A program made the translations under genes and the position numbers. Of a stretch of 64,000 bases of DNA, positions 33,819-63,450 are shown in pieces; the first letter of the stretch is position 1, and the number at the start of each line of letters is the position of its first letter. The notes under the pieces are model-generated. The model was not told where the DNA came from. It made no database searches and worked only from the letters and a program-made list of their open reading frames with translations. Source of the DNA: Chloroflexota bacterium (GTDB lineage: Bacteria; Chloroflexota; Dehalococcoidia; DSTF01; JACRBR01); the NCBI GenBank assembly GCA_031400455.1, contig JANNPX010000029.1:464-64463 (forward strand), given 5' to 3'.

Positions 33819-36800
33819 TCACTTCGTCGCTTCGGCCGTCGCAAGCAACACTTCCGCGATCTCGAGGTGCTTCGGCATGCCGATGTCGCGATACATTGCG
33901 ATGGCCTCGTTGAGGAGCACGCGCGCACGCTCGCGATCGCCGGGAGCGTCGCGTTCGAGCAGCATCCAGGCGTACCAGCGCCGCACTTCGGGCTGTTCGA
34001 TGCGATGCGGCAGGTCGTGCGCCTGGCGCAGGGACGTGTCGAAGTGCTGCTCTGCCACCGCCCACTGGTGTCCGCAGGCAGCCGCAATCCCCGCCGACTT
34101 CTCTAGCAGTGACGGCAGCCAGTCAATGACCGCTCCAGCCGCCATTGTTTCCACCGCGAATGGGTACAGCTCGGCGACCTCCTCGTAGCACTTCAGGAGC
34201 GCCAGCCCTTCGATAGCCGCCAGGTACATCGCGCTGGAGGCGAAATCCAGCTGAGCACCAAGGCCGGGCAGATCGCTCCGTCGCTCCCTCCAAATCGCGA
34301 GCGCCTCGTCCCTGGCGGCACTATACGCCCGTAGTTTGAAGCGGCCGCTGGCCTGCAGCAGCTCCACTGCGGGAATGTCTACTTCAACGACCCGACTCAG
34401 GTGTTCCTCGGCGTTGCCCCAATGCCCGCGCCAGAACTCCGCCACCGCTACCCCAAAGTCGAAGGCGCCGATGTTAAATGCGTTGCTCGATGCGACCGCG
34501 GCCCGAAGGGCCTCCTGGCAGGTGTCTGCGAACGCCTCGAGGTCGCCAGAACGCATCACACGTATCTGGCCCGCAAGATTTGCGGATAGCTGGCAGCAGC
34601 CTTCGTTCCCAAACGGCGCGAGCTTTTCGTTTTCGCGCGCGATCTCCTCCGCTTCATCAAGCCGTCCAATCGAGACGGCGGCCAAGAGCACGTTCTGAAA
34701 CACGGTGGTCGCGTCGTACGGCGCGCCCGCTGCCAGCAACAGCCGCCCTCCGCGCAGGCCGTCGTCGAATGCTTCGGCGTGACGCCCTAGCAGCGAGCCG
34801 TTATCCGCCTTGTACAGCAGGACCATCCCGAGCGCGTGTTGGTCGCCCAGCTCCTCCGCGAGCTTGAGCGCCTCGCCAAATGTCGCCTGTGCGGCGGCGT
34901 AGTCTGCGCCTGGAAGCCAGCACGAGATACCAGCCTCTGCCGCGAGGAGAATGCAACGGTCAGCGTTGACGTGCTCTCCGAGAGCGGCGAGTCCGCGCCT
35001 GGCCACAAGCAATGCTTGTTCAGCGCGTCCTGCCCACAACAGATCCATCGACGTTGTGGCGCAGATCCTACCGACGGCCTCGCCTTGCCCGAGCGATTCG
35101 TAGATCCCCATCGCCGCGTCCCAGTCGCTCAGTGCATCATCCAGGCGGTTGAGGCTGCGCAGCGCGCCGGCGCGTGTATTGAGGAGGTCGGCGCGAGCCT
35201 TGCGGTCTTCCGGATCGACGACGGAGAGGCCATTGTCGCAGAGCTTCAGCGCGTCCTCGAACGCGGCGGCCTTCAGCGCGAGACCGGCAGCCATAACGAT
35301 GTAGAGCATCGTCTTCTCCGGGTCCGCCGCGGCGCCGGCCTGGAAGAGATGGTGCGCGAGGTCCGCCGCGTGCTCGTCGAGCGACCGCGCGTACACGCGC
35401 TCGATGGCGTCGGCGACGCGGAGATGGATCCGCTGGCGCCGCGGCATCGAAAGGCCGCTAAGCAACGTCTGGCGGAACAACTCGTGCGCGAACGCTATCG
35501 TGGCATCGCGTCCGTCATCGGCGGAGCCCACGATGTGTGCCGCCTGCGCTGCGTCGATGGCGTCCAGCACGGCGTCCGCGGTGTCTTCGCTTGCAGCCTC
35601 CAGCAGATCGAAGCGGAAGACGCGCCCGATTACGGCGGCGCTTCCGAGTACGCGCTTCGCGTCTTCACCCAACCGTTCCAGGCGGCGGCCAATGACCAGG
35701 CGCACACCCTCCGGCACCTCGAGTTCGCCTACGACGAGGCTCGCCTTCCAGTTGCCCTGGTCGTCGAAGAGCTTTCCTTCCTCCGCGAGATGACGAACGA
35801 CTTCTTCGACGAAGAAGGGGTTGCCCTCGGTCTCGCTCTCGATCACGTCGACGAGCTTCTGCGGCGGCGCCTGTCCGCTCATCGCCTGCAGCATCGCCTG
35901 CACGCCCGCCTCGGGCAGACGCCGCAGTGCAATGCGGTGTGCCAGCCTGCGCCGCAGCAGCGACTCGAGCGAGCGGGCGAGTGGCCGCCCCACGTCGAGG
36001 TCGACGTCGCGATACGTGCCGAGCATCAGCACAGGCATCGACGCGACCTGCTGTGCGAGGTGTTCCAGCACGAAGAGAGTGGCGTCGTCGGCCCAGTGGA
36101 GGTCGTCGAAGATGAGGAGCAGCGGCGTGACGCGGCTCGCGCGCCCGATGAATTCGCCCAGGCTGTTCAGGAGGAATCGCCGCTCCTGCTCGGGAGGGAG
36201 TTCCACCGGCATCGGAATGTCGTCGAAGATGTGGCGCAACTCCGGCATGATGCGGGCGACCTCGGCCGCGTTCTCGCCGAGAGCCGCGCGAAACGTCTCC
36301 TTCGGCGCCGAGCGCAGAAACGCTTCGAGCATCTCGACGAGCGGTGTATAGGGAGCGGCGCCTTCCATCTCGTAGCAGTGGCCCAGCCGCACGGCGGCGC
36401 CGAGACGCTGCGCCTCGACGGCGATCTCTTCGGCGAGGCGCGTCTTACCCACGCCCGGCTCACCGCCGATCACGACCAGCGCGCCCTGCCCACGAACGGC
36501 CGCCGCCATCAGCTGCCGGAGCTGCGACAGTTCGTCCGCGCGTCCGACGTAGGGCGTGCGGTCGGGCAGCGCGCCGGGCCGGGCTGCTGGCATTTCCCAC
36601 ACGACCTCGTACAGATGCCACGGGTCCGAAAAGCCCTTCAGCGCGAACTCACCCCGGTCCTTGAGCTCGATGTTGCTCGCCGCGCCGAGAAGCATGCGGA
36701 GTCCGTCCGAGATGAGGATCTGGCCCGGTTCAGCGGCGGACTGGATCCGCGCCGCCGCGTTGACGGTCGACCCGAAGAGGTCCGCTTCCTCGCGCACCAC

Positions 36801-37136
36801 CTCGCCTGTGTTGAGACCGATGCGCATCCGCGCCGCGGACGAGGGCGCCTGCTGGATGCGGAGCGCGAGCGCGCGCTGGATATCGATCGCGCATGCCACC
36901 GCGCGGCGCGCCGAGATGAACGCCGCCATCATGCCATCGCCGAGACCCTTCACTTCATGGCCGCGGTGCTTTGCCACGTGCTCGCGCACGAGTTCATGCA
37001 GGGAACGGAGGAGGTCGCGCGCGGGCCCGTCGCCGAGGCGGTTCGTCAGGTCGGTCGAGCCTTCGACGTCACTGAAGAGGACGGTGACCGTGCCTTCGGG
37101 CAGTTCCTGCGCGATGGCCTCGATGCCATCAGTCAT
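33819..37136 (-). CDS. Class III adenylate/guanylate cyclase domain fused to a P-loop NTPase (STAND/MalT-like) and a TPR-like helical domain (1105 aa)
   Basis: N-terminal cyclase domain (VTVLFSDVEGSTDLT, ...KGLGDGMMAAF..., ...GSTVNAAARIQS...), Walker A VVIGGEPGVGKTRLAEE, then about 800 aa of helical repeats. Its start overlaps the stop of the upstream gene (ATGA). Confidence 0.8.
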   Translation of the reverse strand: MTDGIEAIAQELPEGTVTVLFSDVEGSTDLTNRLGDGPARDLLRSLHELVREHVAKHRGHEVKGLGDGMMAAFISARRAVACAIDIQRALALRIQQAPSSAARMRIGLNTGEVVREEADLFGSTVNAAARIQSAAEPGQILISDGLRMLLGAASNIELKDRGEFALKGFSDPWHLYEVVWEMPAARPGALPDRTPYVGRADELSQLRQLMAAAVRGQGALVVIGGEPGVGKTRLAEEIAVEAQRLGAAVRLGHCYEMEGAAPYTPLVEMLEAFLRSAPKETFRAALGENAAEVARIMPELRHIFDDIPMPVELPPEQERRFLLNSLGEFIGRASRVTPLLLIFDDLHWADDATLFVLEHLAQQVASMPVLMLGTYRDVDLDVGRPLARSLESLLRRRLAHRIALRRLPEAGVQAMLQAMSGQAPPQKLVDVIESETEGNPFFVEEVVRHLAEEGKLFDDQGNWKASLVVGELEVPEGVRLVIGRRLERLGEDAKRVLGSAAVIGRVFRFDLLEAASEDTADAVLDAIDAAQAAHIVGSADDGRDATIAFAHELFRQTLLSGLSMPRRQRIHLRVADAIERVYARSLDEHAADLAHHLFQAGAAADPEKTMLYIVMAAGLALKAAAFEDALKLCDNGLSVVDPEDRKARADLLNTRAGALRSLNRLDDALSDWDAAMGIYESLGQGEAVGRICATTSMDLLWAGRAEQALLVARRGLAALGEHVNADRCILLAAEAGISCWLPGADYAAAQATFGEALKLAEELGDQHALGMVLLYKADNGSLLGRHAEAFDDGLRGGRLLLAAGAPYDATTVFQNVLLAAVSIGRLDEAEEIARENEKLAPFGNEGCCQLSANLAGQIRVMRSGDLEAFADTCQEALRAAVASSNAFNIGAFDFGVAVAEFWRGHWGNAEEHLSRVVEVDIPAVELLQASGRFKLRAYSAARDEALAIWRERRSDLPGLGAQLDFASSAMYLAAIEGLALLKCYEEVAELYPFAVETMAAGAVIDWLPSLLEKSAGIAAACGHQWAVAEQHFDTSLRQAHDLPHRIEQPEVRRWYAWMLLERDAPGDRERARVLLNEAIAMYRDIGMPKHLEIAEVLLATAEATK

Positions 37137-40100
37137 TCTGTCACCCGTACCGCATAGATCGAGTGCACGCCCGAAAGGCCCTTCAACTCCACCTCGCGCG
37201 GCTCGCCGAACATCGCCGCGCCGACGCTGCTCTCGACGAGAGCGCGCAACAGCGACGACACGAGGATCTCGCCGCCGACGGCTTTGCCGGCGACGCGGGA
37301 TGCCATGATCACGTTCTTGCCGTAGAAGTCGTCGTCGTCCTTGATGACTTCGCCGGCGTGGAGGCCGATGCGCACCTTCACGTGCTCGCCGTTCGTAGCA
37401 TTGTGCCCGTCGAAGGCACGCTGGATCGCGATGGCGCAGTCGAGGCCCTTCTTCGCGGACTGGAAGGCGACCATGAAGCCGTCACCCATCGTCTTCACTT
37501 CGTAGCCGCCGTGCGCCTGCAACTGAGCGCGGATCAGGGCGTTGTGTTTGCGGAGCAGATCCTGCCACGCCTGGTCGCCGAGGCGCTCGGTGAGCACGGT
37601 CGAGTCCTCGATGTCGCTGAACATGATCGTGACGGTGCCGTCCGGCGCCGCGTGCGACGCGATCTCCGGCCGTTCGCGCTCGACGCTATCGGCGACCGCG
37701 GCGATCGACGTGTAGATGTCGGTCGTGATCGTGCTGATGCCCTGATCGCGCATGCGCAGCCGCATCGCCTCTTCGAGCGCCGGCTGCATCTTCATCGCCT
37801 GAAACTCGCCGAGCGCAAAGTTCAGGTGCTCGACCGCCTCGGCGCGCTCGTCCGGGTAGTGCTCGAACAGGGTGCGGGCGATGGCGAGGCGCGTGAGCGC
37901 GATCTCCGGCCGATCGTCAGCTCCGGCCGCCACGTCGAGCGAGGTCGCGAAATGCTTTCGTGCAGCGGCGAAATCGCCGAGCAGCAGCGCCGCGAGGCCG
38001 AGTTGGCGCGCCACTGTGCCGACGAAGTCGATTGAATACAGGTGGTCGGCTATGGCCAAGCGTTGGGACAGCAGTGATGCTGACTCAACATCGCGCGCGA
38101 TCACAGATGCGGCGAGCAGATAGACCAGCGAACCAGTGTCCGTCCAGTCGTCCTCGACTTGGATGCCGCGCGCCGCAATGATGCGCCGAACTTCGCTTCG
38201 CGCTTCGTCGAGCTGACCGGCCGCGGCCAGGACGAGCGCGAGGGTAGGTTCACCCGTCACCCACGACAGGAAGGACTCGCGACGAGCGAGGACTTCGTCA
38301 AAATGGCCGAGCCTCGTGAGCGCCGGGGCGGCTGCCCCGTGGGCCATGATCTGCCCGAACACGCCGACTCCGAGCGCTTCGGCCTGATCGCCGAAATCCA
38401 ATGCGACCTGAACAAGTTTCTCCAGATCGCCGGCCCGTACGAGGCGGCTCGCCTGGGCCGCAATAAGCCATATCTTGACGTACGGATCGCCCACGCGGTG
38501 TGCGTACTCCTCCAGTTCGTGGTACGCCGCCTCGCGCAGTGGTTGCCCTTTCGCGTCAACGAGGCGCTGGAAACACATCGCGAGGTTTTGGGCCAGAAAG
38601 CCCGGGCGCTGACGAACGCGCGGCAGGCTGAGAAACTCCTCGGCAACCCTGACGGTTTCGTCGTGAATCTCGGGCGGAAACTGCCCGACGAGGAAGCTTG
38701 TCATTGCCCAGTTGAGCGCTTCGGGGTCGGCTATCTGCCTAGCGAGTTCGAGCCCGCGCCTCTGCAATTCCAAGGTTTCTCGGACTCGCCCGTGCGCATA
38801 GTGGATCCAGGATTCGGCGACGATCGCAGAGACTCGCTCCGGGCTCCCCGGCGTCGAAAGGTCATTTTGGCGCTTGACCCAGAGCGCGTACTCGGGGCTG
38901 CCGAAGACAGGGCCTGCGCCAAAATAGATCAGTCCATCGATTGCACGCTGCGCGGCGATCGCTGCCCGCCGATCGTCGCCCATGCGCTCGGCGGTTGCAT
39001 ACATCTCCGGCGCTATCTCATCCGAAACGCGCTGCGGCTCGCCCGCTGAGAGCAGCGCGTAGGCAAGCGCTTCCAGCAGTTCGTAGCGCCTCCCGCCATC
39101 GTTCGGGTCCAGCACGTCCTGCACCTGCAGTGCCTGTTGCAGCAGGCGGGCCGCCTCGCCGTGAGCGTAGACGCTCGCCGCACGCGTCGCTGCGAGTTCG
39201 CCATAGTGGACGGCTTTGCGCAGGTCTTCCTCGGTCGATGAATGCGCGAAGTGCTCCGCCAGTTCCGCCGCGTGCTCATCGAGGCGCGACGCGTAGTGCG
39301 TTTCCAGCGCCTTCGCGACGTCGTTGTGCAGGCGCAGGCGGCGTGGTGCGATCATCTCGCTGTACAGCGTCTGGCGGAAGTACGCGTGCGTGAAGCGATA
39401 GCGGACATCGCGCCCCTGCGTGTGCTCCTCAAGCAGCGAGACGCCGACCGCTTCTTCGATTGCGCTCAGCAACTGCTCCTCCGGCACGTTTGCGACGGCG
39501 CGCAGCACATCGAGCGAGAAGTCGCGCCCCATGACCGCGGCGATGCTGAGGATGCGGTTGCACTCGTCGCCGAGCCGCGACAGCCGCTTGCCGATGACGT
39601 CGCGCAAGCCTTCCGGGATCTGTGTGAGCAGCGACGCATTCGCCACCCATTGGCCGCCTTCGCGCTGCGCCAGGCCGGATTCCAGGATGTAGCGCGCCAC
39701 CTCCTGAATGAAGAGCGGGTTGCCCTCCGTCTGTCGGTAGATCGCCTCCGCGAGCACGTACGGCACGTCCTGGCCGGCGATGTTCGAGAGCATTCGTTGC
39801 ACTTCGTCGGGTGTGAGGCCGCGCAGGGCGATGCGCGTGAAGTTCTCGACGCGCCGCAGATCGGCGAGCGCTGCCGACAGCGGGTGCTTTCGGTCCACTT
39901 CGACATCGCGATAGGTGCCGACGATCAGGAGACGCGTGCCGGCGAGGTTGCGCGCGAGATGCACGAGCAACTCCATCGTCCCCTTGTCGCCATCCTGCAA
40001 GTCCTCGAGGACGATGCAAAGCGCCTGGGCATTCGATGCGTTGCGCAAGAACGTCGCCACAGCCTGGAAGAGCCGGAACCGCTCCTCCTCCGGGTTGCCG

Positions 40101-41560
40101 GGCGGCGGCAGCTCGACCGCCACGCGATCGCGGATCTCCGAGACGATGCGCGCCACTTCGCCCGCTCCCGTGCCGAGCTCTTCCTCCAGCGCATCGCTCT
40201 CGCGCACCAGCGCGTACGATCGCATTGCCTCGACGAACGGAAGGTACGGCAGCGCCAGCGATCCCTCTTCGTAGCAGTGGCCTACGAGCGTCCGGCCGCC
40301 GCGCATCGCCACGTACGTCAGCAGTTGTTCCGTAACGGTCGTTTTGCCGATGCCGGGCTCGCCAACGACCATCACCAGCGCGCCTTGGCCGGAGAGCGCG
40401 CCGTCGAACGCGGCCTGGAGCTGCTTCAGCTCGGCCTCGCGGCCGACGAATGTGCGCTGGTAGATCGCCCCGCTCGCCGCATCTTCGGATGGCTCGGCTG
40501 CGGTCGTCGGGGACTGCACGTCGATCGAAGCGAGTGCCTGCACGACGTCGGTCGCGCTGGCCGGACGCTGCGCCGGATCCTTGGCGAGCAGGCGCAGGAT
40601 CAGCGCCTCGAGTCCAGACGGACACTCGCTCGTGTGCCACGTCGGCGCAACAGGCGGCGTATTGACGTGCTGCGAGATAACGGCGACGATGTCGTCGCCG
40701 ACGAACGGCGGCCGGCCCGTCACCATCTCGTAGAGCACGCAGCCCAAGGCGTACAGGTCGCTTGAGTCGGTGGTGACGCCGCCCATCGCCTGCTCCGGCG
40801 GCATGTACGCTGCCGTGCCGACCATGGTGCCCTGCATCGTCATGCGTGTCTTGTCGAGCGTCACCGCCAGCCCGAAGTCGCCGATCTTCACGATGCCCGC
40901 GTCGGTGAGCCAAACATTGCCGGGCTTCAGATCGCGATGGATGATGCCGTGCTTGTGCGCGTGCTCCAGCCCCTGCGCGACCTGCGACGCGATCCGCACC
41001 GCATCGGTGATCGGCACGCGCCGCCGTTCCGCCGCGTCGATCAGCCCGGTGAGTTCGCCGCCCGCCATGTACTGGCTGACGATGTACGGCTCGACCACGC
41101 CGCCAGCGGCCGTCTCCTCGCCCGTGTCGAACACGGTGACGATGTTCGCATGGTCGCCTAGTTTGCCCATCGCCTGCGCCTCGCGCCGGATGCGCGTCAC
41201 GCCGTCCGCGTCCAGGCCGTCCGTCTTGATCGCCGCGAACGCGACGTCGCGGTCGAGCTTCGTGTCGTGAGCGAGGTAGACACGCTTTCGGCCGCCTTCC
41301 CCCAGGAAGGACTGCACGGTGTAGCGGCCGTCGCCAAAGGATGCGGGGAGGGGCCGTGCGGCCGGAGGCTTGGGCTGGGACAGCGTGGCAGCCGCATCCG
41401 CCGTCAGCGACGCGCGGCATCGTTTGCAGAACTTGGCCGTGGGTGAGTTGGTCGTGCCACAGGCCGCGCAGGGGCGAACGAGGTCGCCTCCGCACTCCTC
41501 ACAGAAGTCCGCATCGGTCGGGTTCACGTGGCCGCAGGCCGAACACTGCATCGTCATCAC
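37133..41560 (-). CDS. Giant signalling protein (1475 aa): double zinc-ribbon, Ser/Thr protein kinase, P-loop NTPase (STAND), TPR-like region, C-terminal class III cyclase domain
   Basis: CSACGHV...CEECGG and CAACGT...CKRC zinc ribbons. Kinase motifs (VAFAAIK, HRDLKPGN, DFGLA, APE). Walker A VVGEPGIGKTTVTEQ. C-terminal cyclase domain (TIMFSDIEDSTVLT, YEVKTMGDGFM, GKNVIMASR). Confidence 0.8.
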   Translation of the reverse strand: MMTMQCSACGHVNPTDADFCEECGGDLVRPCAACGTTNSPTAKFCKRCRASLTADAAATLSQPKPPAARPLPASFGDGRYTVQSFLGEGGRKRVYLAHDTKLDRDVAFAAIKTDGLDADGVTRIRREAQAMGKLGDHANIVTVFDTGEETAAGGVVEPYIVSQYMAGGELTGLIDAAERRRVPITDAVRIASQVAQGLEHAHKHGIIHRDLKPGNVWLTDAGIVKIGDFGLAVTLDKTRMTMQGTMVGTAAYMPPEQAMGGVTTDSSDLYALGCVLYEMVTGRPPFVGDDIVAVISQHVNTPPVAPTWHTSECPSGLEALILRLLAKDPAQRPASATDVVQALASIDVQSPTTAAEPSEDAASGAIYQRTFVGREAELKQLQAAFDGALSGQGALVMVVGEPGIGKTTVTEQLLTYVAMRGGRTLVGHCYEEGSLALPYLPFVEAMRSYALVRESDALEEELGTGAGEVARIVSEIRDRVAVELPPPGNPEEERFRLFQAVATFLRNASNAQALCIVLEDLQDGDKGTMELLVHLARNLAGTRLLIVGTYRDVEVDRKHPLSAALADLRRVENFTRIALRGLTPDEVQRMLSNIAGQDVPYVLAEAIYRQTEGNPLFIQEVARYILESGLAQREGGQWVANASLLTQIPEGLRDVIGKRLSRLGDECNRILSIAAVMGRDFSLDVLRAVANVPEEQLLSAIEEAVGVSLLEEHTQGRDVRYRFTHAYFRQTLYSEMIAPRRLRLHNDVAKALETHYASRLDEHAAELAEHFAHSSTEEDLRKAVHYGELAATRAASVYAHGEAARLLQQALQVQDVLDPNDGGRRYELLEALAYALLSAGEPQRVSDEIAPEMYATAERMGDDRRAAIAAQRAIDGLIYFGAGPVFGSPEYALWVKRQNDLSTPGSPERVSAIVAESWIHYAHGRVRETLELQRRGLELARQIADPEALNWAMTSFLVGQFPPEIHDETVRVAEEFLSLPRVRQRPGFLAQNLAMCFQRLVDAKGQPLREAAYHELEEYAHRVGDPYVKIWLIAAQASRLVRAGDLEKLVQVALDFGDQAEALGVGVFGQIMAHGAAAPALTRLGHFDEVLARRESFLSWVTGEPTLALVLAAAGQLDEARSEVRRIIAARGIQVEDDWTDTGSLVYLLAASVIARDVESASLLSQRLAIADHLYSIDFVGTVARQLGLAALLLGDFAAARKHFATSLDVAAGADDRPEIALTRLAIARTLFEHYPDERAEAVEHLNFALGEFQAMKMQPALEEAMRLRMRDQGISTITTDIYTSIAAVADSVERERPEIASHAAPDGTVTIMFSDIEDSTVLTERLGDQAWQDLLRKHNALIRAQLQAHGGYEVKTMGDGFMVAFQSAKKGLDCAIAIQRAFDGHNATNGEHVKVRIGLHAGEVIKDDDDFYGKNVIMASRVAGKAVGGEILVSSLLRALVESSVGAAMFGEPREVELKGLSGVHSIYAVRVTE

Positions 41561-41740
41561 TCCAGCGATTCGGGACGGGGGGTCTCAGGAGCCTCACTAT
41601 ATGGATGCCCGCCCGTTATCGGAACCGGCGGGCCGTCGCCTGTTGACAGGTGCTACTCGTTGCGAGTCTGTGAAAATCGCGCACTTCAGGTTGCGGGGCG
41701 GGCGCTGCTCTCCGAGAATGAGAGCGAGAGGTGGTGGATC

Positions 41741-45787: not shown

Positions 45788-46432
45788 TCATGCAGCTTTG
45801 GCGGTTGCGGGTACGGCCGCGAGTTTCGGTGTGCGCTTCGCCACTGAGCGGGACGCGAGGATGCGGAAGAACGTGAGAAAGAGCACGGCTGCGGCGGAGG
45901 CGAGATAGGAGTACTGAACGTACGCCTTCTTCGTGTCCGTGCCGGCCCAGGCGCCGTGGGCCAGCGCCATAACGAAGATCGCGAAGGTGGCGTAATGGAT
46001 GAGGCGCCACATGTTCTGGCCGATCATGCCTTTCACGTAAAACGACACGGTAATGAAGATGGATGCGTAGAACGTCACGATGCCGAGCGCAACGGCATTG
46101 GTGCGGTAGTTTGACTCGAATGGCACGAGCATCTGCTTGAAGGTGAACTTGGCGTAGGGGTCGGGGATCATGATGAGGGCGTGGAAGACCATCGCGAGCA
46201 GGACGAAGATCGAGAGGAACTTGTGAACGTCGAAGACCCACGGCCGCGCCAGCATGCCGTCGAAGACACGGGAGCTGACTGCCAGGCCCATGGCCACGGA
46301 CGCGAAGAGTAGCCAGAAGGCCGTGAAGCCAGACGAGCGTCCCAGATACCACCACACGTGGACCCACGGTCCGCTCGCGGCGGCCGGCGTGAGCGCCTGC
46401 AGCGCGGGAGGGATCACAGCGTCAGGGAACAT
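45788..46432 (-). CDS. Ferric-reductase/MsrQ-like di-heme transmembrane protein
   Basis: Five or six TM helices with two His pairs in alternate helices (vHkflsifvllamvfH, HX13H; iHyatfaifvmalaH, HX12H), as in bis-heme b ferric-reductase domain proteins. Confidence 0.6.
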   Translation of the reverse strand: MFPDAVIPPALQALTPAAASGPWVHVWWYLGRSSGFTAFWLLFASVAMGLAVSSRVFDGMLARPWVFDVHKFLSIFVLLAMVFHALIMIPDPYAKFTFKQMLVPFESNYRTNAVALGIVTFYASIFITVSFYVKGMIGQNMWRLIHYATFAIFVMALAHGAWAGTDTKKAYVQYSYLASAAAVLFLTFFRILASRSVAKRTPKLAAVPATAKAA

Positions 46433-46510
46433 GAGCGCGGGCTACTCCTTGCATCGTTCCGGGCCGCACGAGCGGCCCGGAGGGTCGATTCAGACAGTGA
46501 AAGTGTCGGT

Positions 46511-47122
46511 CTACGAGCCGGTCGACGGGATAGGCGTCGGCTGTGGAACCGGCGTCGGCCGCGGCGGTGGCGGCGCCGGTGGCGGCGCGGCTGGTGGTGG
46601 CGGCGCGGCCGTTGGCGGCGGCGCGGGATCGGCGGGCTTCGGCGGAGGGGCTGACGCGGGAGGTGGTGGCAGCTCAGGCGCCCCGGGCGCGGGCTGGGAT
46701 GGCGCTCGTGGTGCCGGATCTGATGCGCCCGGCTTCGATGACTTGGAGGGTGACGGCTGCTGCGTGGTGGTCCCTGGCGCGGACGCCGCAGGCGCGGAGT
46801 CGGCGACGACGGCGTCATCAGTGGCAGCCAGCGCCTGGGTGTCCGTGTTGACGTACTTCGTGACGACAACGACCTGCCGAATGATGGTTTGCTGCGGCGG
46901 TTCGGGCGTCGGCGGAGCCGTCGTCGGCGCGGGCGGTGGTGCCGAGACGGCCGCGAGGAATTGCAGAGCCGCCGCGTAGTCGTCCTGCTGCTTCTTCGCG
47001 GACGCCGCCCGGGAGGCGCTGATGTCCGGCCACGCGAACGCGCTCCAGATCAGCGCCGTCAGGACAACGCTGCACGCGACCGTCAGGAGTTTGGTCTTCC
47101 AGAACTTCGTCATCAGTTGCAT
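46511..47122 (-). CDS. Membrane-anchored Pro-rich extracytoplasmic protein (paralog of the next gene)
   Basis: N-terminal TM, then ...AAALQFLAAV...VVVVTKYV..., then a long PAPxPP low-complexity tail. AGGAGC SD. Confidence 0.55.
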   Translation of the reverse strand: MQLMTKFWKTKLLTVACSVVLTALIWSAFAWPDISASRAASAKKQQDDYAAALQFLAAVSAPPPAPTTAPPTPEPPQQTIIRQVVVVTKYVNTDTQALAATDDAVVADSAPAASAPGTTTQQPSPSKSSKPGASDPAPRAPSQPAPGAPELPPPPASAPPPKPADPAPPPTAAPPPPAAPPPAPPPPRPTPVPQPTPIPSTGS

Positions 47123-47131
47123 CGAGCGCTC

Positions 47132-47902
47132 CTAGTTGTCCAACTCGATCTCGGTCACCGTGCAGCCGCCGGACTGCGTCGTGTGGACATGCGCACGCAC
47201 ACCAACATGCAGCGCCGATGCGTGTGCCGTCGAGTCGAGGGCGCGTGTCTGGACGCCGTTCGACCATGTGACAAGCTTTCCGCCACTGATCGGCGCCATC
47301 GCCGTCACAAGCGATTCGAACTCGTCGTTGCAAGCCGCCTGCGCGGGCGGCGCTGTCGGCTGCGGAGCCGGTGGCGCCGACGTTGGCGGTGCGGCGGGCT
47401 GGGTCGCCGAGGGCGCGGGCTTCGGCGTTGATGTCGGCGCGACCGAGCTCGGAGCGGATGTCGGCGCCTTGGGGGGCGGTGCTCCCACCGTAGGCTGCTT
47501 GTCATCGCCTTCATCGACGGGCTCGTTTTCGGAACGAGGCGCCTCCGCCGCGGGGGCCTGGGTAGGTGCGCCCACCGCCTGCGCCGCAGGTCCGGTACGG
47601 CGAGGGGCGCCTGCCACGGGCGTCTCGTACAGGTAGACGTACTCTGTGATCACGCGCGGGCCCGAAGGCTGGGAGCTTGCGCTTGTCCCAGCCTGTGCGG
47701 TCTGGTCCGCCACAGCGGCGAGATAGCGCAGCGCGGCATCGACGTCGCCAGGGGGCGGTTGTCCGGCAGCCTGCGCCCTTTGCGTGGTCGCAGACTTCTT
47801 CGCGTCGCTGAAGAAGCCGGCGTTGACGCCGAGCGCGACGAGCGAGAACGTCACAATCGTGGTGAAGGCGAGGGAGAGGGCGAGGGCGACGCGTCGAGGC
47901 AT
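47132..47902 (-). CDS. Membrane-anchored Pro-rich protein with a C-terminal ~70-aa globular domain. Candidate ApbE substrate
   Basis: N-terminal TM, ...DAALRYLAAVADQ...VITEYVYLY..., Pro-rich linker, then ...CNDEFESLVTAMAPISGGKLVTWSNGVQTRALDSTAHASALHVGV...GGCTVTEIELDN. Directly downstream of apbE. Confidence 0.5.
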   Translation of the reverse strand: MPRRVALALSLAFTTIVTFSLVALGVNAGFFSDAKKSATTQRAQAAGQPPPGDVDAALRYLAAVADQTAQAGTSASSQPSGPRVITEYVYLYETPVAGAPRRTGPAAQAVGAPTQAPAAEAPRSENEPVDEGDDKQPTVGAPPPKAPTSAPSSVAPTSTPKPAPSATQPAAPPTSAPPAPQPTAPPAQAACNDEFESLVTAMAPISGGKLVTWSNGVQTRALDSTAHASALHVGVRAHVHTTQSGGCTVTEIELDN

Positions 47903-47910
47903 GGTGGTGC

Positions 47911-48867
47911 TCACTTTCCCGCCGGGAGTCCGGGCCAATCCGCGCTCTGCGCGCAGCTGCCGTCGTCCCGCACGATGAATCCCGGTGTACGTTGCGCGTC
48001 GAGGAAGGCGAGCCCTTCGTCCACGCCGAGGATGAGGGCGGTCTTGGCGAACACGTCCGCTTCGACGGTGGTAGGTGCGACGACGGATACGGCGCGAACG
48101 CCTGAGTCCGCGGGCCGTCGCGTCCGCGGGTCGATGATGTGGTGCAGCCGCACGCCCGCGCGTCGCCAGTTGCGGGTCGCCGTTGTCGATGTGGCGAGCG
48201 CCTGGTTGCGGAGGCGGAGGATGCCCAGCGGCGCATCGCCCGGGGCTGGCGCGACGCTCACGAGCCATCCGTCACCGTTCGGCCCACTGCCCGATGCGCG
48301 CATGTCCCCGCCCGCAGAGACAAGAACATCGCGCGCCTCACGCAGGTGCGTCATGGCGCAATCCACCGCATAGCCTTTCCCTATCCCACCGAAGTCGATG
48401 GTGAGGCCGGCGGGTGCGCTAACGTGCGCGCCGTCGATGGTGATGTCCGCGATCGATGCTCGCGCGTGCGTGCACACGTCCGCGGGCGATGCGTCATCAC
48501 GAGACATTTCTTCGAACGAGCGGTCGTAGCCGGCAGCAACAAGATCGTCGAGGATTGCAGACTCGAAGACGCCGCGCGTCCGGTGATGCATCTCGATTGA
48601 CCGGCGCAAGAGATCGACGAACGCGGGCGAGGCTTCGAAGCTGGTGTTGGGCCGCGCGTTGAAGCAGGAGAGTTCGCTCGTCGGCGCGAATCGGGTGAAT
48701 CGCGATTCGACTTCGTGGAACATCTGCTCGGCATCGGCGAGAAGCGGAGCGACGTCCGCGCGCATCGCGTAGAGATCGATGTGCGTGTTCATCACGCGAA
48801 AGCGGCGGACGATCTGCAGTTCGCCCCACGATGTCGGGATCGGCAGCGTTGCGATGTGGTCTGGCAT
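47911..48867 (-). CDS. apbE: FAD:protein FMN transferase (ApbE family)
   Basis: ...LTIDFGGIGKGYAVD... and ...LHHIIDPRT... ApbE signature motifs. Confidence 0.8.
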   Translation of the reverse strand: MPDHIATLPIPTSWGELQIVRRFRVMNTHIDLYAMRADVAPLLADAEQMFHEVESRFTRFAPTSELSCFNARPNTSFEASPAFVDLLRRSIEMHHRTRGVFESAILDDLVAAGYDRSFEEMSRDDASPADVCTHARASIADITIDGAHVSAPAGLTIDFGGIGKGYAVDCAMTHLREARDVLVSAGGDMRASGSGPNGDGWLVSVAPAPGDAPLGILRLRNQALATSTTATRNWRRAGVRLHHIIDPRTRRPADSGVRAVSVVAPTTVEADVFAKTALILGVDEGLAFLDAQRTPGFIVRDDGSCAQSADWPGLPAGK

Positions 48868-49056
48868 GGCGTAACCCCTCGCCTACCGTTATCTGGTCTT
48901 GACCGTCGCAAGTAACAGGTGGATGCCCTGTTATTTTCGGCCGGGCGCGCTGCGAAAAGGACGCGCGTCAGTGCGAATGCGACGAGATCGAGACCTGACC
49001 ACCCGCTGAAAGTATCGGCGGATGGTCAGGGAACTGTCGGACGCCGGCAGCGCAGC

Positions 49057-49101
49057 ATGTGTGAACAACAAGACAGCACGCCGAGATCTCGGCGTGCTGT
49101 C
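49057..49101 (-). terminator. Intrinsic terminator of the ECF sigma/anti-sigma operon
   Basis: 30-bp perfect palindrome GACAGCACGCCGAGATCTCGGCGTGCTGTC (49072-49101), followed on the minus strand by UUGUUGUUC. Confidence 0.5.
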
Positions 49102-49155
49102 CGAACGCGCGCGCGACCGGGTGGTCGCCAGGTCGCACGGAGCGTCTACGCTGGG

Positions 49156-50214
49156 CTAGTTGTGGTCTTCGGTCGGCTCGGGCTTTTGGGTAGGCTCGGG
49201 CTTCTCGGTGGGTTCTGGCGCTTCCGTTGGCTCAAGCGAATGTGATTCGGTCGACTGCGCGGCCGGCTCGGCATCGTCGCCGGGTGATGGCGTCTTCGTG
49301 CTGTCTTCGTGAGCTCCGCCGTCGTCAGTGGTGGCGGATGGCGATGGCCCGTCGTGATCAGGGCCGTCATCGTCGCTGTTGCCGTCGTCGGACTGAGGCG
49401 TGGCGCCGTCATTGCCGTCGTCCCCCGATTCGTCCGGTTCAGGCGTGCGCGCATTCTCGCCGTCGTGGCCGCGATCGTCGGTGCTCGTCGGGCGCGTGCG
49501 ATCCTCGGTTCCGGGTGTTAGTTCGGGCACGAGGTTTGGATCGAGAGTGGCGGGAGTCGGTGCGACGGCCACGATGCGCGCGGCGCGCAGCGTCCCGCCC
49601 ACGCCACGTGACGCGCGCACCCTGGCGGTCTGGCCGAGCGCGAGATCGGCGACGCCTGCGCGTACCTCGCCGATGCGGATCTCCGTTGTGGTGTCTATGA
49701 CGACGACTTCGTCCGCGCTGGATGTGCGAAGTGTGAGGCTGTCGGCCTCGAGTGCGACTATCGTGCCGCGGATCTCGACAACGTTGTCGGATGAAATCGC
49801 GAGGACGTGGAGGAAGCCCGGTACGGGGACGGGGCTGCGGTCGCCAGCAGCAGATGCGAAGCCGATGCCGCCGAAGAGCAGGACGGCGAGGCCGGCGGCG
49901 GCAGCCTGTAACCGCAGGTGACGGGCGCCGAGCGCGGTCCAGAACCCGGCGAGCATCGACGCGCGCTGCGGCGTCGGAGCGTCGAGCGCGGCGAACATCG
50001 CCTGCGCTGCATTCGCCCGCGACTGCGGCGACGGGGCTGTGCCCGGAAGTGCGAGGACTGGCTGGAGCGCCGAGAGCGGCGCGCGCATGGCGTCCGCGTG
50101 TTGCGGGTACGCGCGGAGGACGCTGTCGAGGGACTCGCCACGAGCGATGCGAGTAGCGGCGGCGTCGACGGCGTCATCCAAGGAGGAGTCGCGAGGGCGC
50201 GGTGAGTCAGCCAT
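49156..50214 (-). CDS. Anti-sigma-factor-like membrane protein with an acidic repetitive C-terminus (PEPTEKPEPTQKPEPTE)
   Basis: Overlaps the ECF sigma stop by 8 nt. One TM (LAVLLFGGIGFASAA), an extracytoplasmic domain, then a D/E/P/T-rich tail. Confidence 0.55.
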   Translation of the reverse strand: MADSPRPRDSSLDDAVDAAATRIARGESLDSVLRAYPQHADAMRAPLSALQPVLALPGTAPSPQSRANAAQAMFAALDAPTPQRASMLAGFWTALGARHLRLQAAAAGLAVLLFGGIGFASAAGDRSPVPVPGFLHVLAISSDNVVEIRGTIVALEADSLTLRTSSADEVVVIDTTTEIRIGEVRAGVADLALGQTARVRASRGVGGTLRAARIVAVAPTPATLDPNLVPELTPGTEDRTRPTSTDDRGHDGENARTPEPDESGDDGNDGATPQSDDGNSDDDGPDHDGPSPSATTDDGGAHEDSTKTPSPGDDAEPAAQSTESHSLEPTEAPEPTEKPEPTQKPEPTEDHN

Positions 50215-50770
50215 CGATGACCCTCCGCAGTGACTGCAGCGCCCGCGTCTGTGTGACTTTCACGGCTCCCTCACTCTTATCCATAACGGCGGCGGTTTCA
50301 GCGACGTTAAGCCCGTGCACGAATCGGAGCAGGATGACGTCGCGGTATTCGTCCTTGAGTTGGCCGAGGGCGTGAGAGACGTCGCGCATGTCATCGCCGG
50401 GTGCGATCGCATCGCGCGCGCTCAGGGTCTGCGCGACGCGCTCATCCGTGAGCGAGTGGGCGGGACGGCTGGCCCGGCGTTTCATATGATCGGCGATTTC
50501 GTTACGCGCGATGCGGAAGAGCCATGCGCTCACAGGCAGTCCTCGATACCGAAACGAGTCGATCCCTTTGACTGCTTCCGTGAAGACCGTCGAGGCGAGA
50601 TCATCGGCGTCGGCACGGTCACCGATCCGAAGAAGTGCGAAGTGAAAGATCCGCTCGTGTTGCTCATCGAACAACTGCTGCCAGGCTGTTTGGTCACGCG
50701 CGGCCAAAGCAGTGGCCAGGTCCTCCTCGTTCTCGTACGGACGAGCGGCCGAGATGGCGGGATCCCCCAT
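50207..50770 (-). CDS. ECF sigma factor
   Basis: ...IFHFALLRIGDRADADDLASTVFTEAVKGIDSF... (region 2), and ...LNVAETAAVMDKSEGAVKVTQTRALQSLRR (region 4). Confidence 0.85.
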   Translation of the reverse strand: MGDPAISAARPYENEEDLATALAARDQTAWQQLFDEQHERIFHFALLRIGDRADADDLASTVFTEAVKGIDSFRYRGLPVSAWLFRIARNEIADHMKRRASRPAHSLTDERVAQTLSARDAIAPGDDMRDVSHALGQLKDEYRDVILLRFVHGLNVAETAAVMDKSEGAVKVTQTRALQSLRRVIDG

Positions 50771-51007
50771 CAGCGTGTGTTCTGTATCAGGCGAGCCATC
50801 CTAGAGACGATATCCGGACAAGGGGGGTCTAGGTTACAGCCGAATGGCGCTATTTTTCGGGTTCTGACTGTTATTGCCGCGTAGACGTTTGCTCACTCGG
50901 AGCGCTCCCGCGTCCCCATTGTCGGAGGTCGGCCTGACGGTATGGGCCGAATGGCGCATACTCTACTCGACCGGCAGATCCATCGCCGCCAGCGGGAGTC
51001 ATAAGAG

Positions 51008-63376: not shown

Positions 63377-63450
<74 letters not shown>

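Follow-up and report, generated by a model that had tools for sequence, protein, structure and literature searches.

Nqr, Rnf, NosR and extracellular electron transfer all depend on flavinylation by ApbE. The closest described counterparts of the locus presented here are the MsrQ-like flavinylation systems (PMC8238504, PMC11334425), where apbE is clustered with a membrane protein of the PF01794 superfamily bearing four conserved haem-ligating histidines, and where electrons are presumed to cross the membrane to an extracytosolic flavin. We found a cluster that resembles them in these two traits, the second of them likewise presumed, in a Chloroflexota bacterium (assembly GCA_031400455.1, contig JANNPX010000029.1, positions 464 to 64,463; this whole stretch of 64,000 nucleotides is called the window below). 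It consists of four open reading frames (ORFs) on the minus strand at 45788-48867, namely apbE and three genes which we designate B, C and D.

The MsrQ-like systems are mainly actinobacterial, whereas the window cluster belongs to Chloroflexota, and it differs from them in several further respects. It has no FMN_bind, DUF2271 or DUF3570 acceptor, no NAD-binding domain and no NuoF-like partner. Its ApbE has no signal peptide, and its membrane protein D has five helices in the window and six in some orthologues. It also includes two Pfam-less proline-rich tether families and a putative regulon of an extracytoplasmic function (ECF) sigma factor. Judged from its sequence, the cluster can be classified as a variation on the MsrQ-like systems, with an unexported ApbE and no acceptor of the FMN_bind type. 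In the published survey about 4% of the ApbE-encoding genomes were left without a known acceptor, and its pipeline discarded genes for ApbEs without a signal peptide, so that it would miss a cluster of this kind (PMC8238504). Our literature searches for the cluster itself, for ApbE together with proline-rich proteins, and for ApbE together with Chloroflexi and ferric reductase turned up no description of it.

If the usual acceptor domains are absent, then we can ask: Which protein could carry the flavin? Our preferred reading, to which we give a probability of roughly 0.4, is that this operon of soil Chloroflexota, controlled by an ECF sigma factor, builds a membrane module for electron export with flavin mononucleotide (FMN) on the terminal serine of C. 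The features on which this reading depends are the following.

47911-48867, minus strand: apbE, leaderless homologue of FAD:protein FMN transferase (FAD, flavin adenine dinucleotide), 318 aa; Pfam ApbE 1.8e-53
47132-47902, minus strand: B, 256 aa; RR-containing signal-anchor, strand motif VITEYVYLYE, proline-rich stalk, domain assigned as divergent DUF5666
about 47135-47335, minus strand: C-terminal domain of B, assigned as divergent DUF5666, with two Cys and AHVH
46511-47122, minus strand: C, 203 aa; Lys-rich N-terminus, signal-anchor, strand motif IIRQVVVVTK, Pro/Ala tether
codons 46514-46525, minus strand: tail of C in the window, S-T-G-S, the invariant C-terminal tail of the C family
45788-46432, minus strand: D, 214 aa; five-helix predicted di-haem cytochrome b with the ferric-reductase / cytochrome b561 / STEAP / NOX fold

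All four ORFs lie where a first-pass annotation of the sequence had placed them, and the same four genes are called on an identical 4.1-kb contig of a public assembly. The annotation gave the gaps between the genes as 8-10 nt, which is correct for apbE-B (8 nt) and B-C (9 nt) but not for C-D, where the spacer is 78 nt long. This spacer holds three in-frame stops and a separate AAGGAG for D. Read-through or fusion of C and D, which share a frame, was considered and is ruled out by the three stops and by the lack of natural C-D fusions: the longer homologues of D are extended at the C-terminus only and never fused to C. The G+C content of the window is about 65%.

The related loci were gathered by a search with an alignment of D homologues and comprise 31 genome loci and 80 metagenome loci, all from metagenome-assembled genomes (MAGs) of Chloroflexota/Dehalococcoidia or from soil and sediment metagenomes. 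The flanks are housekeeping genes (prmA, RNA methyltransferase, UDG, pterin dehydratase, FMO-like oxidoreductase, SDR), and they differ between loci. More than 90 related loci share the cluster while their flanks differ, so the four-gene arrangement is, by sequence comparison, far beyond chance. In 38 of the 47 loci with at least 3.3 kb of flanking sequence, apbE lies on the same strand as D and 1.8-3.1 kb upstream of it, and all four look-ups centred on ApbE (4/4) show apbE followed by three Pfam-less genes of the size of B, C and D. The genes are thus co-conserved, and the ApbE linkage holds across 40-84% ApbE identity. C and D are found in nearly every locus, the number of B copies ranges from zero to three, and gene order varies, an example being apbE-B-C-B'-D in locus L045.

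Two variants of the neighbourhood were recorded. Genes for the alpha and beta subunits of electron-transfer flavoprotein, some of them fragmented, lie divergent and directly upstream of apbE in three loci (L002 3125-4939, L006 3700-5509, L007 3334-5510); they may hint at a cytoplasmic electron donor or may be a coincidence. In L030 (4630-6574) a B-type gene together with an adjoining ORF of 333 aa has apparently been duplicated in tandem just upstream of a paralogous C-D pair.

The protein C was correctly described by the first-pass annotation as membrane-anchored and proline-rich. Its relatives share one order of elements: a Lys-rich N-terminus with the motif [KR][FY]xx[ST]K, the anchor, often A-W-P-D, a basic strand (such as IIRRVVVVRR, in 56 of 73 proteins), a Pro/Ala tether and a constant end. 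The tether is hypervariable, with a length of about 60-130 residues and a median Pro+Ala content of 52%. By the positive-inside rule all 73 proteins are predicted to have the N-terminus inside and the C-terminus outside. A search of a representative library with C gave only 10 relatives, so the family is a narrow one.

What remains constant behind this variable tether is its last residues. Among the 73 unique C proteins, a set chosen with a loose tail pattern, the last position of the motif (position 0) is Ser in all 73, position -3 is Thr or Ser in all 73, and position -1 is Ala or Gly in 70; the C-terminus usually reads T-[K/R]-[A/G]-S. When the Pro/Ala-rich ORFs just before D were taken unfiltered, [ST]x[AG]S ended 71 of 77, and five of the other six ended in Ser. 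Most loci missed by the Pro/Ala ORF filter show the same tail in the raw listing, and within C proteins the tail motif has a background frequency of 0.4%. Both TCN (43) and AGY (35) codons are used for the terminal Ser, and Ala, Gly and Thr use all their codons; for this reason the tail is taken to be selected as protein and not as a ribosome-binding site. The tail is also kept where C is not adjacent to D (L045) and across the 78-nt gap of the window; with the mixed codons, this persistence rules out an artefact of ribosome binding or translational coupling. Because two variants run three residues past the Ser (KAS-GAP and SGS-APP), the constant feature is its hydroxyl and not a free carboxylate.

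Several tails have a canonical flavinylation core: SGAS in L111, TGAS in L023 and P0250, SGGS in L021 and L060, and TGGS in L119. Comparable substrates have been described. In the engineered Flavin-tag the substrate of ApbE is a short unstructured tag, which works best at a protein terminus (PMC12052999), and FMN_red acceptors carry the flavinylation site on an unstructured C-terminal extension (PMC11334425). The candidate site in C resembles both as a short unstructured C-terminal Ser/Thr motif. However, their motif is the canonical D-x-x-[S/T]-G-A-[S/T], while that of C is usually T-[K/R]-[A/G]-S, and the site in C stands on a tether of about 60-130 residues, away from any flavin-binding domain.

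No other part of the operon offers a comparable site. Searches of B and C against Pfam and NCBIfam gave no match to any family, FMN_bind, DUF2271 and DUF3570 included; the pattern D..[ST]G[AS][ST] was absent from the likely coding ORFs of the 64-kb window; and neither the bodies of C proteins nor those of B proteins contain a positionally conserved motif of this kind (canonical flavinylation motif in C, acceptor motif in B). The cytoplasmic [ST]K of C was considered as an acceptor and is weakened by its variation, since Ser or Thr occupies the position in only 63 of 73 proteins and Ala, Trp or Leu in the rest. On these grounds the terminal Ser of C is the likeliest candidate for the FMN acceptor. 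The first-pass annotation had made its proposal depend on a conserved Ser/Thr acceptor motif in the orthologues of the proline-rich proteins; a candidate for one is found in C, at its terminal Ser, but not in B.

The membrane protein D would provide the path for electrons. Its histidines form the pairs H70-X13-H84 and H146-X12-H159, as the first-pass annotation had noticed, and all four are invariant in 79 homologues. A fifth, H25 at the outer face, is at least 90% conserved. The AlphaFold model (predicted local distance difference test, pLDDT, 87.6; predicted template modelling score, pTM, 0.81) has five long helices, and some orthologues have a sixth, N-terminal one, which agrees with the earlier count of five or six. 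Foldseek matched the model to SpNOX and STEAP2 at probability 1.0, and the fold also matches Dcytb and NOX. D of the window had no Pfam match at E<=1; among the 79 homologues 40 match PF01794 (best 3.5e-6) and 28 match PF01292. According to its model, D is a five-helix, predicted two-haem cytochrome b with the ferric/cupric reductase fold, and the conserved linkage bears out the proposal that apbE is in one operon with a bis-haem member of the ferric-reductase superfamily.

From the charge distribution we predict that the N-terminus of D is outside and its Lys/Arg-rich C-terminus inside, and the orthologues with the sixth helix agree with this topology. The conserved outer face then consists of H25, W28, Y29, R32, P90-D91-P92 and G164-T165-D166, and the conserved inner face of S54, R55, D58, G59, W65, K134, Q139, W142 and R143. 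D shares the fold and the two His pairs, spaced 13 and 12, with Dcytb/cytochrome b561, STEAP1-4, NOX, SpNOX and MsrQ; the additional conserved H25 is located at the outer face. It differs from these di-haem metalloreductases in having no fused reductase domain, and sequence identity to them is only 8-18%; further differences are the absence of the N-terminal helix in the window and the dedicated single-pass partner C. Because a dehydrogenase domain is missing from D, its electrons probably come from quinol or a soluble reductase. Five homologues of D (P0053, P0062, P0082, P0089 and P0096) have Pro/Ala-rich C-terminal extensions of 60-130 residues, which are predicted to be cytoplasmic.

Can the ApbE of this operon perform the reaction, and where? 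Its identity, which the first-pass annotation had recognised by motifs such as HHIIDPRT, is clear from the match to Pfam ApbE (PF02424; 182.2 bits at a cut-off of 25.6); the sequence also includes DFGGIGKGYAVD. The best solved relatives are the V. cholerae and Pseudomonas ApbEs, with V. cholerae 6nxi at 2.9e-23. Ser227, His243 and Asp271 align with the catalytic triad of 6nxi and of the H257G mutant 6nxj, the triad of the V. cholerae enzyme being S241/H257/D285 (PMC12052999). All three catalytic residues are conserved: S227 and H243 are invariant in 31 clade members, as is K164, the lysine of GGIGKG, and at D271 conservation is at least 90%. The Tyr of the 'STY' segment in V. cholerae ApbE, a residue which contacts or stacks on the flavin in FAD-binding ApbEs (PMC4767422), is aligned with F60.

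The ApbE domain begins at residue 26, and in the window only five codons separate the upstream stop from the ATG. Even when read from the upstream stop, none of 40 unique orthologues has a hydrophobic N-terminal segment, and for 92 database homologues the stretch ahead of the domain has a median length of 25 aa, a single borderline hydrophobic case, of 18 aa, being noted. A hidden signal peptide starting further upstream is excluded, because stops occur 5-70 codons before the domain and the intervening stretch is short and hydrophilic. Since the orthologues checked have no export signal, ApbE is predicted to act in the cytoplasm. The operon thus does not fit the standard extracytosolic flavinylation system for which the first-pass annotation had taken it. 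Cytoplasmic ApbEs do exist: the Klebsiella pneumoniae enzyme and the ApbE domains of trypanosomatid fumarate reductases (PMC12052999) likewise have no export signal and are expected to act in the cytoplasm. Their substrate, however, is the folded FMN_bind domain of a soluble cytoplasmic reductase, whereas the operon partners in the window are all membrane-bound or exported and none has an FMN_bind domain.

The component B agrees with the first-pass description of a membrane-anchored, proline-rich protein with a C-terminal domain of about 70 aa: it has an N-terminal hydrophobic anchor and a proline-rich middle, and its C-terminal domain is about 67 aa long. The anchor in the family reads M-x-R-R-x-A-L (RR in 65 of 73) and is followed by a juxtamembrane acidic strand such as VITEYVYVD, the proline-rich stalk and a variable end. 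The predicted topology is N-in/C-out in all 73 by the positive-inside rule. In a simple test of composition 25 of the 73 ends were Asp/Glu/His-rich and 12 were DUF5666-like with HxH; the remaining 36 are mostly further DUF5666-like domains or weakly acidic tails. The terminus is -DD in 37 of 73 B-type proteins. Many of them have long runs, such as HEHEHEHEHEYEYEY or DDDDDDDHDDDDDDD, that resemble metal-binding tails set on proline-rich stalks, for instance in L018 (6054-6521), L036 (2198-2569) and L113 (2739-3242).

The C-terminal domain of B in the window had no Pfam match at E<=10. Its orthologues score 29.6-39.7 bits against DUF5666 (PF18914; curated threshold 27), closer relatives reach 17-20 bits, and all B-type domains align with that of the window and with the DUF5666 domain of a neighbouring anti-sigma-like protein. 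By these alignments the domain is probably a divergent DUF5666 beta-domain. A literature search on DUF5666 turned up no published function. The two Cys found at the ends of the domain in the window and in L039 would fit an extracytoplasmic location.

The first-pass annotation had proposed this domain, in the product of 47132-47902, as a new FMN acceptor that would be flavinylated extracellularly near 'LDSTAHAS'. It is true that the domain is the only folded extracytoplasmic one of the operon and that B follows apbE directly, at a gap of 8 nt. The profile search confirmed that the domain has no classical FMN_bind match, and the orthologous domains pointed to DUF5666 instead. The conserved positions (Glu, Phe, Gly, Val, His, Ala, Glu) include no Ser or Thr, and 'LDSTAHAS' aligns to a variable loop. 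In 25 of 73 orthologues Asp/Glu/His-rich tails take the place of the domain, four paralogous clusters without apbE have no B at all, and ApbE is not exported. With the proposed site in a variable loop and the domain replaced in many orthologues, B is no credible flavin acceptor, and we consider this explanation highly improbable.

B and C had also been called paralogues. The shared blocks are indeed present (AALRYLAAV/AALQFLAAV and VITEYV/VVTKYV), but paralogy finds no statistical support: BLASTP gave E=2.2 and profile-profile comparison a probability of 25%. The ALRYLAA block is a feature of the C family, seen in 17 of 73 C proteins; among B proteins it is confined to this lineage and L044. 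The two proteins are complementary in charge at their strand motifs and at their ends.

If these components work together, the following sequence of events may be proposed. ApbE would attach FMN through a phosphoester bond to the terminal Ser of C, and this would take place in the cytoplasm, before export of the unfolded tail; the step is set before export because ApbE is predicted to act in the cytoplasm. Once outside, the flavin on its tether would take electrons from the outer haem of D, at the conserved outer face (H25, W28, Y29, R32, D91, D166), and pass them to an acceptor held by the tails or the domain of B. This acceptor would most likely be a metal cation, for example Fe(III) or Cu(II), in view of the Asp/Glu/His-rich tails of B, the conserved His of DUF5666 and the metalloreductase relatives of D. 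This full scenario, with modification of C by a leaderless ApbE in the cytoplasm, subsequent export and a leashed flavin that shuttles electrons to metals on neighbouring tethers, we regard as doubtful in its entirety.

A number of observations weigh against our preferred reading, that C carries FMN on its terminal Ser within an electron-exporting module. The main problem is a conflict of compartments: ApbE is leaderless, and the tail of C is predicted to lie outside in 73 of 73 proteins. Flavinylation before export has, to our knowledge, no precedent. The tail itself departs from the canonical motif, having Arg or Lys at position -2 in 60 of 73 proteins, where the canonical motif has Gly (Gly is found in 3), and no canonical Asp at -6. 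Nine of the 47 loci have no apbE and represent paralogous C-D clusters, and the distant ApbE-D pair of L038 has no C. In the ApbE clade the Asp ligand of Mg2+ is kept, and the position of the Thr ligand is an invariant lysine, Lys275. Metal binding by B and metal reduction are suppositions drawn from composition and from what the structural relatives of D do.

The conflict of compartments could be avoided if ApbE worked at the cytoplasmic face on D itself or on the cytoplasmic N-terminus of C, with the tail of C as no more than a peptide for docking to, or assembly with, the outer face of D. Covalent FMN would then create the flavin entry site which in STEAP and NOX is supplied by non-covalent FAD under the inner haem. 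Such an arrangement would suit the leaderless ApbE, the conserved [KR][FY]xx[ST]K motif in the N-terminus of C, and a D that has no dehydrogenase domain and yet has strongly conserved cytoplasmic loops. It would also suit L038, where a leaderless ApbE overlaps a D-like gene and neither B nor C is present. But the Ser/Thr of the N-terminal motif of C is found in only 63 of 73 proteins. In D, the context of S53/S54 (A-V-S-S-R) is unlike [S/T]GA[S/T], S54 is Asn in L038, and no other invariant cytoplasmic Ser or Thr was found. The flavinylation-like and sometimes canonical tail of C would be left without explanation, and we consider this alternative unlikely. As to L038 (5881-7498 and 8542-10485), its ApbE has the usual ATSG motif, the D-like gene has six helices and is seemingly frameshifted, and a nearby long ORF resembles, by eye only, a heavy-metal P-type ATPase.

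The altered metal site of ApbE raises another question. In the T. pallidum Ftp, D284 and T288 are the Mg2+ ligands, and activity is lost in T288A (PMC4436053). Thr is also found in the three solved ApbEs that match the window protein best, which itself has Lys275 at this position, so the chemistry of this ApbE may differ: the clade may have a modified metal site or mechanism, distinct from that of Ftp. The residue that matches E244 of Ftp is Thr, Ala or Ser in the clade. The substrate of ApbE might be encoded elsewhere in the genome, an example being a cytoplasmic reductase with an FMN_bind domain like that of Klebsiella, or the Lys275 variant might have lost FMN transfer to protein and now be an FAD-binding or processing partner; B, C and D would in either case form a flavin-independent haem reductase that is only co-regulated with apbE. 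Apart from the replacement of Thr by Lys, this is favoured by the documented action of a cytoplasmic ApbE on soluble fumarate reductase (PMC12052999) and by the existence of C-D clusters without apbE in cis; the acceptor search was confined to the loci. On the other side, the catalytic Ser, His and Asp and the Lys of GGIGKG are conserved, and the linkage is tight over 40-84% ApbE identity, with gaps of 8-9 nt in the window and a dedicated promoter. Moreover, in five of the seven apbE-less clusters that derive from MAGs the same MAG also carries a cluster with apbE. We hold this explanation to be rather improbable.

The regulation of the operon involves a pair of genes upstream of apbE on the same strand, with the following features.

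50207-50770, minus strand: ECF-type sigma factor, 187 aa; Pfam Sigma70_r2 4.5e-14, Sigma70_r4 6e-12, Sigma70_ECF 8e-4
49156-50214, minus strand: anti-sigma-like membrane protein with one transmembrane segment, DUF5666 domain and Asp/Glu/His/Pro-rich tail
49071-49102, minus strand: terminator-like hairpin between the anti-sigma gene and apbE, 14-bp stem and T-rich tail
50811-50837, minus strand: promoter-like motif GTAACCT-N14-CGGATA upstream of the ECF sigma gene
48890-48916, minus strand: promoter-like motif GTTACTT-N14-CAGATA, 23 nt upstream of the apbE ATG

The sigma and anti-sigma-like genes overlap by 8 nt, and the strong hairpin behind them indicates two transcription units, sigma/anti-sigma and the apbE operon. 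The sigma factor has sigma-70 regions 2 and 4 only. The anti-sigma-like protein matches DUF5666 at E=1.6e-4 (residues 149-214) and carries modules of B, namely the DUF5666 domain and an acidic/His-rich tail. The pair is similar to known pairs of ECF sigma factors and membrane anti-sigma factors in its overlapping genes and in the AAC-containing -35 element shared by the sigma gene and the presumed target operon, but here the sensor part consists of the modules of the regulated B proteins. In about 19 loci a homologous sigma gene adjoins the cluster, in most cases directly after D, and the anti-sigma-like counterpart in L120 also has a DUF5666 match.

The promoter-like motif was searched as GT[ATG]AC[CTA][TCA]-N13-17-[CGA][AG]GAT[AT]. 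A scan of the 64-kb window, both strands included, gave exactly two matches, one ahead of the sigma gene and one ahead of apbE (mean of shuffled sequences 0.86). Of 44 unique regions upstream of apbE, 13 (strict) or 19 (loose) contain it, against 0.12 or 0.6 in shuffles. In 1.67 Mb of related loci the motif was found 19 times, 16 of them directly before apbE and two before sigma genes (L075 and L032). ECF sigma factors commonly drive their own promoter, and together with the shared motif this suggests that the apbE operon belongs to the regulon of the adjacent ECF sigma factor.

A Pro/Thr-rich ORF that ends in RTCGSTPPPPEPCP adjoins apbE-less paralogous C-D clusters in two loci (L028 7744-8652 and L033 7706-8452, both minus strand). 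In L028 it is preceded by the promoter-like motif of apbE and the sigma gene (8480-8454), and it may be a further member of the regulon. Elsewhere in the window there are two very long ORFs of about 1220 and 1480 codons (33819-37481 and 37133-41584, both minus strand) with a coding-like G+C content at third codon positions (GC3), and one tRNA gene (63380-63450, minus strand), which is the sole Rfam match in the window at the gathering threshold.

The cluster offers a testable candidate for one missing class of ApbE acceptors, a terminal Ser on a disordered tether, and it raises the question of where flavinylation occurs relative to export. It also gives a context to two Pfam-less families and to DUF5666, and places them in a putative ECF sigma regulon of their own in soil Chloroflexota that are abundant and uncultured. 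Should the idea of a tethered flavin be true, the cell would not need to export FAD, and a Pro/Ala tether of about 60-130 residues would hold the covalently bound flavin over the two-haem conduit. Nature would then possess a counterpart of the engineered Flavin-tag and a novel design for carrying electrons past the membrane, with a novel class of acceptor, an unfamiliar sequence of events in which modification precedes export, and a novel architecture for extracellular electron transfer.

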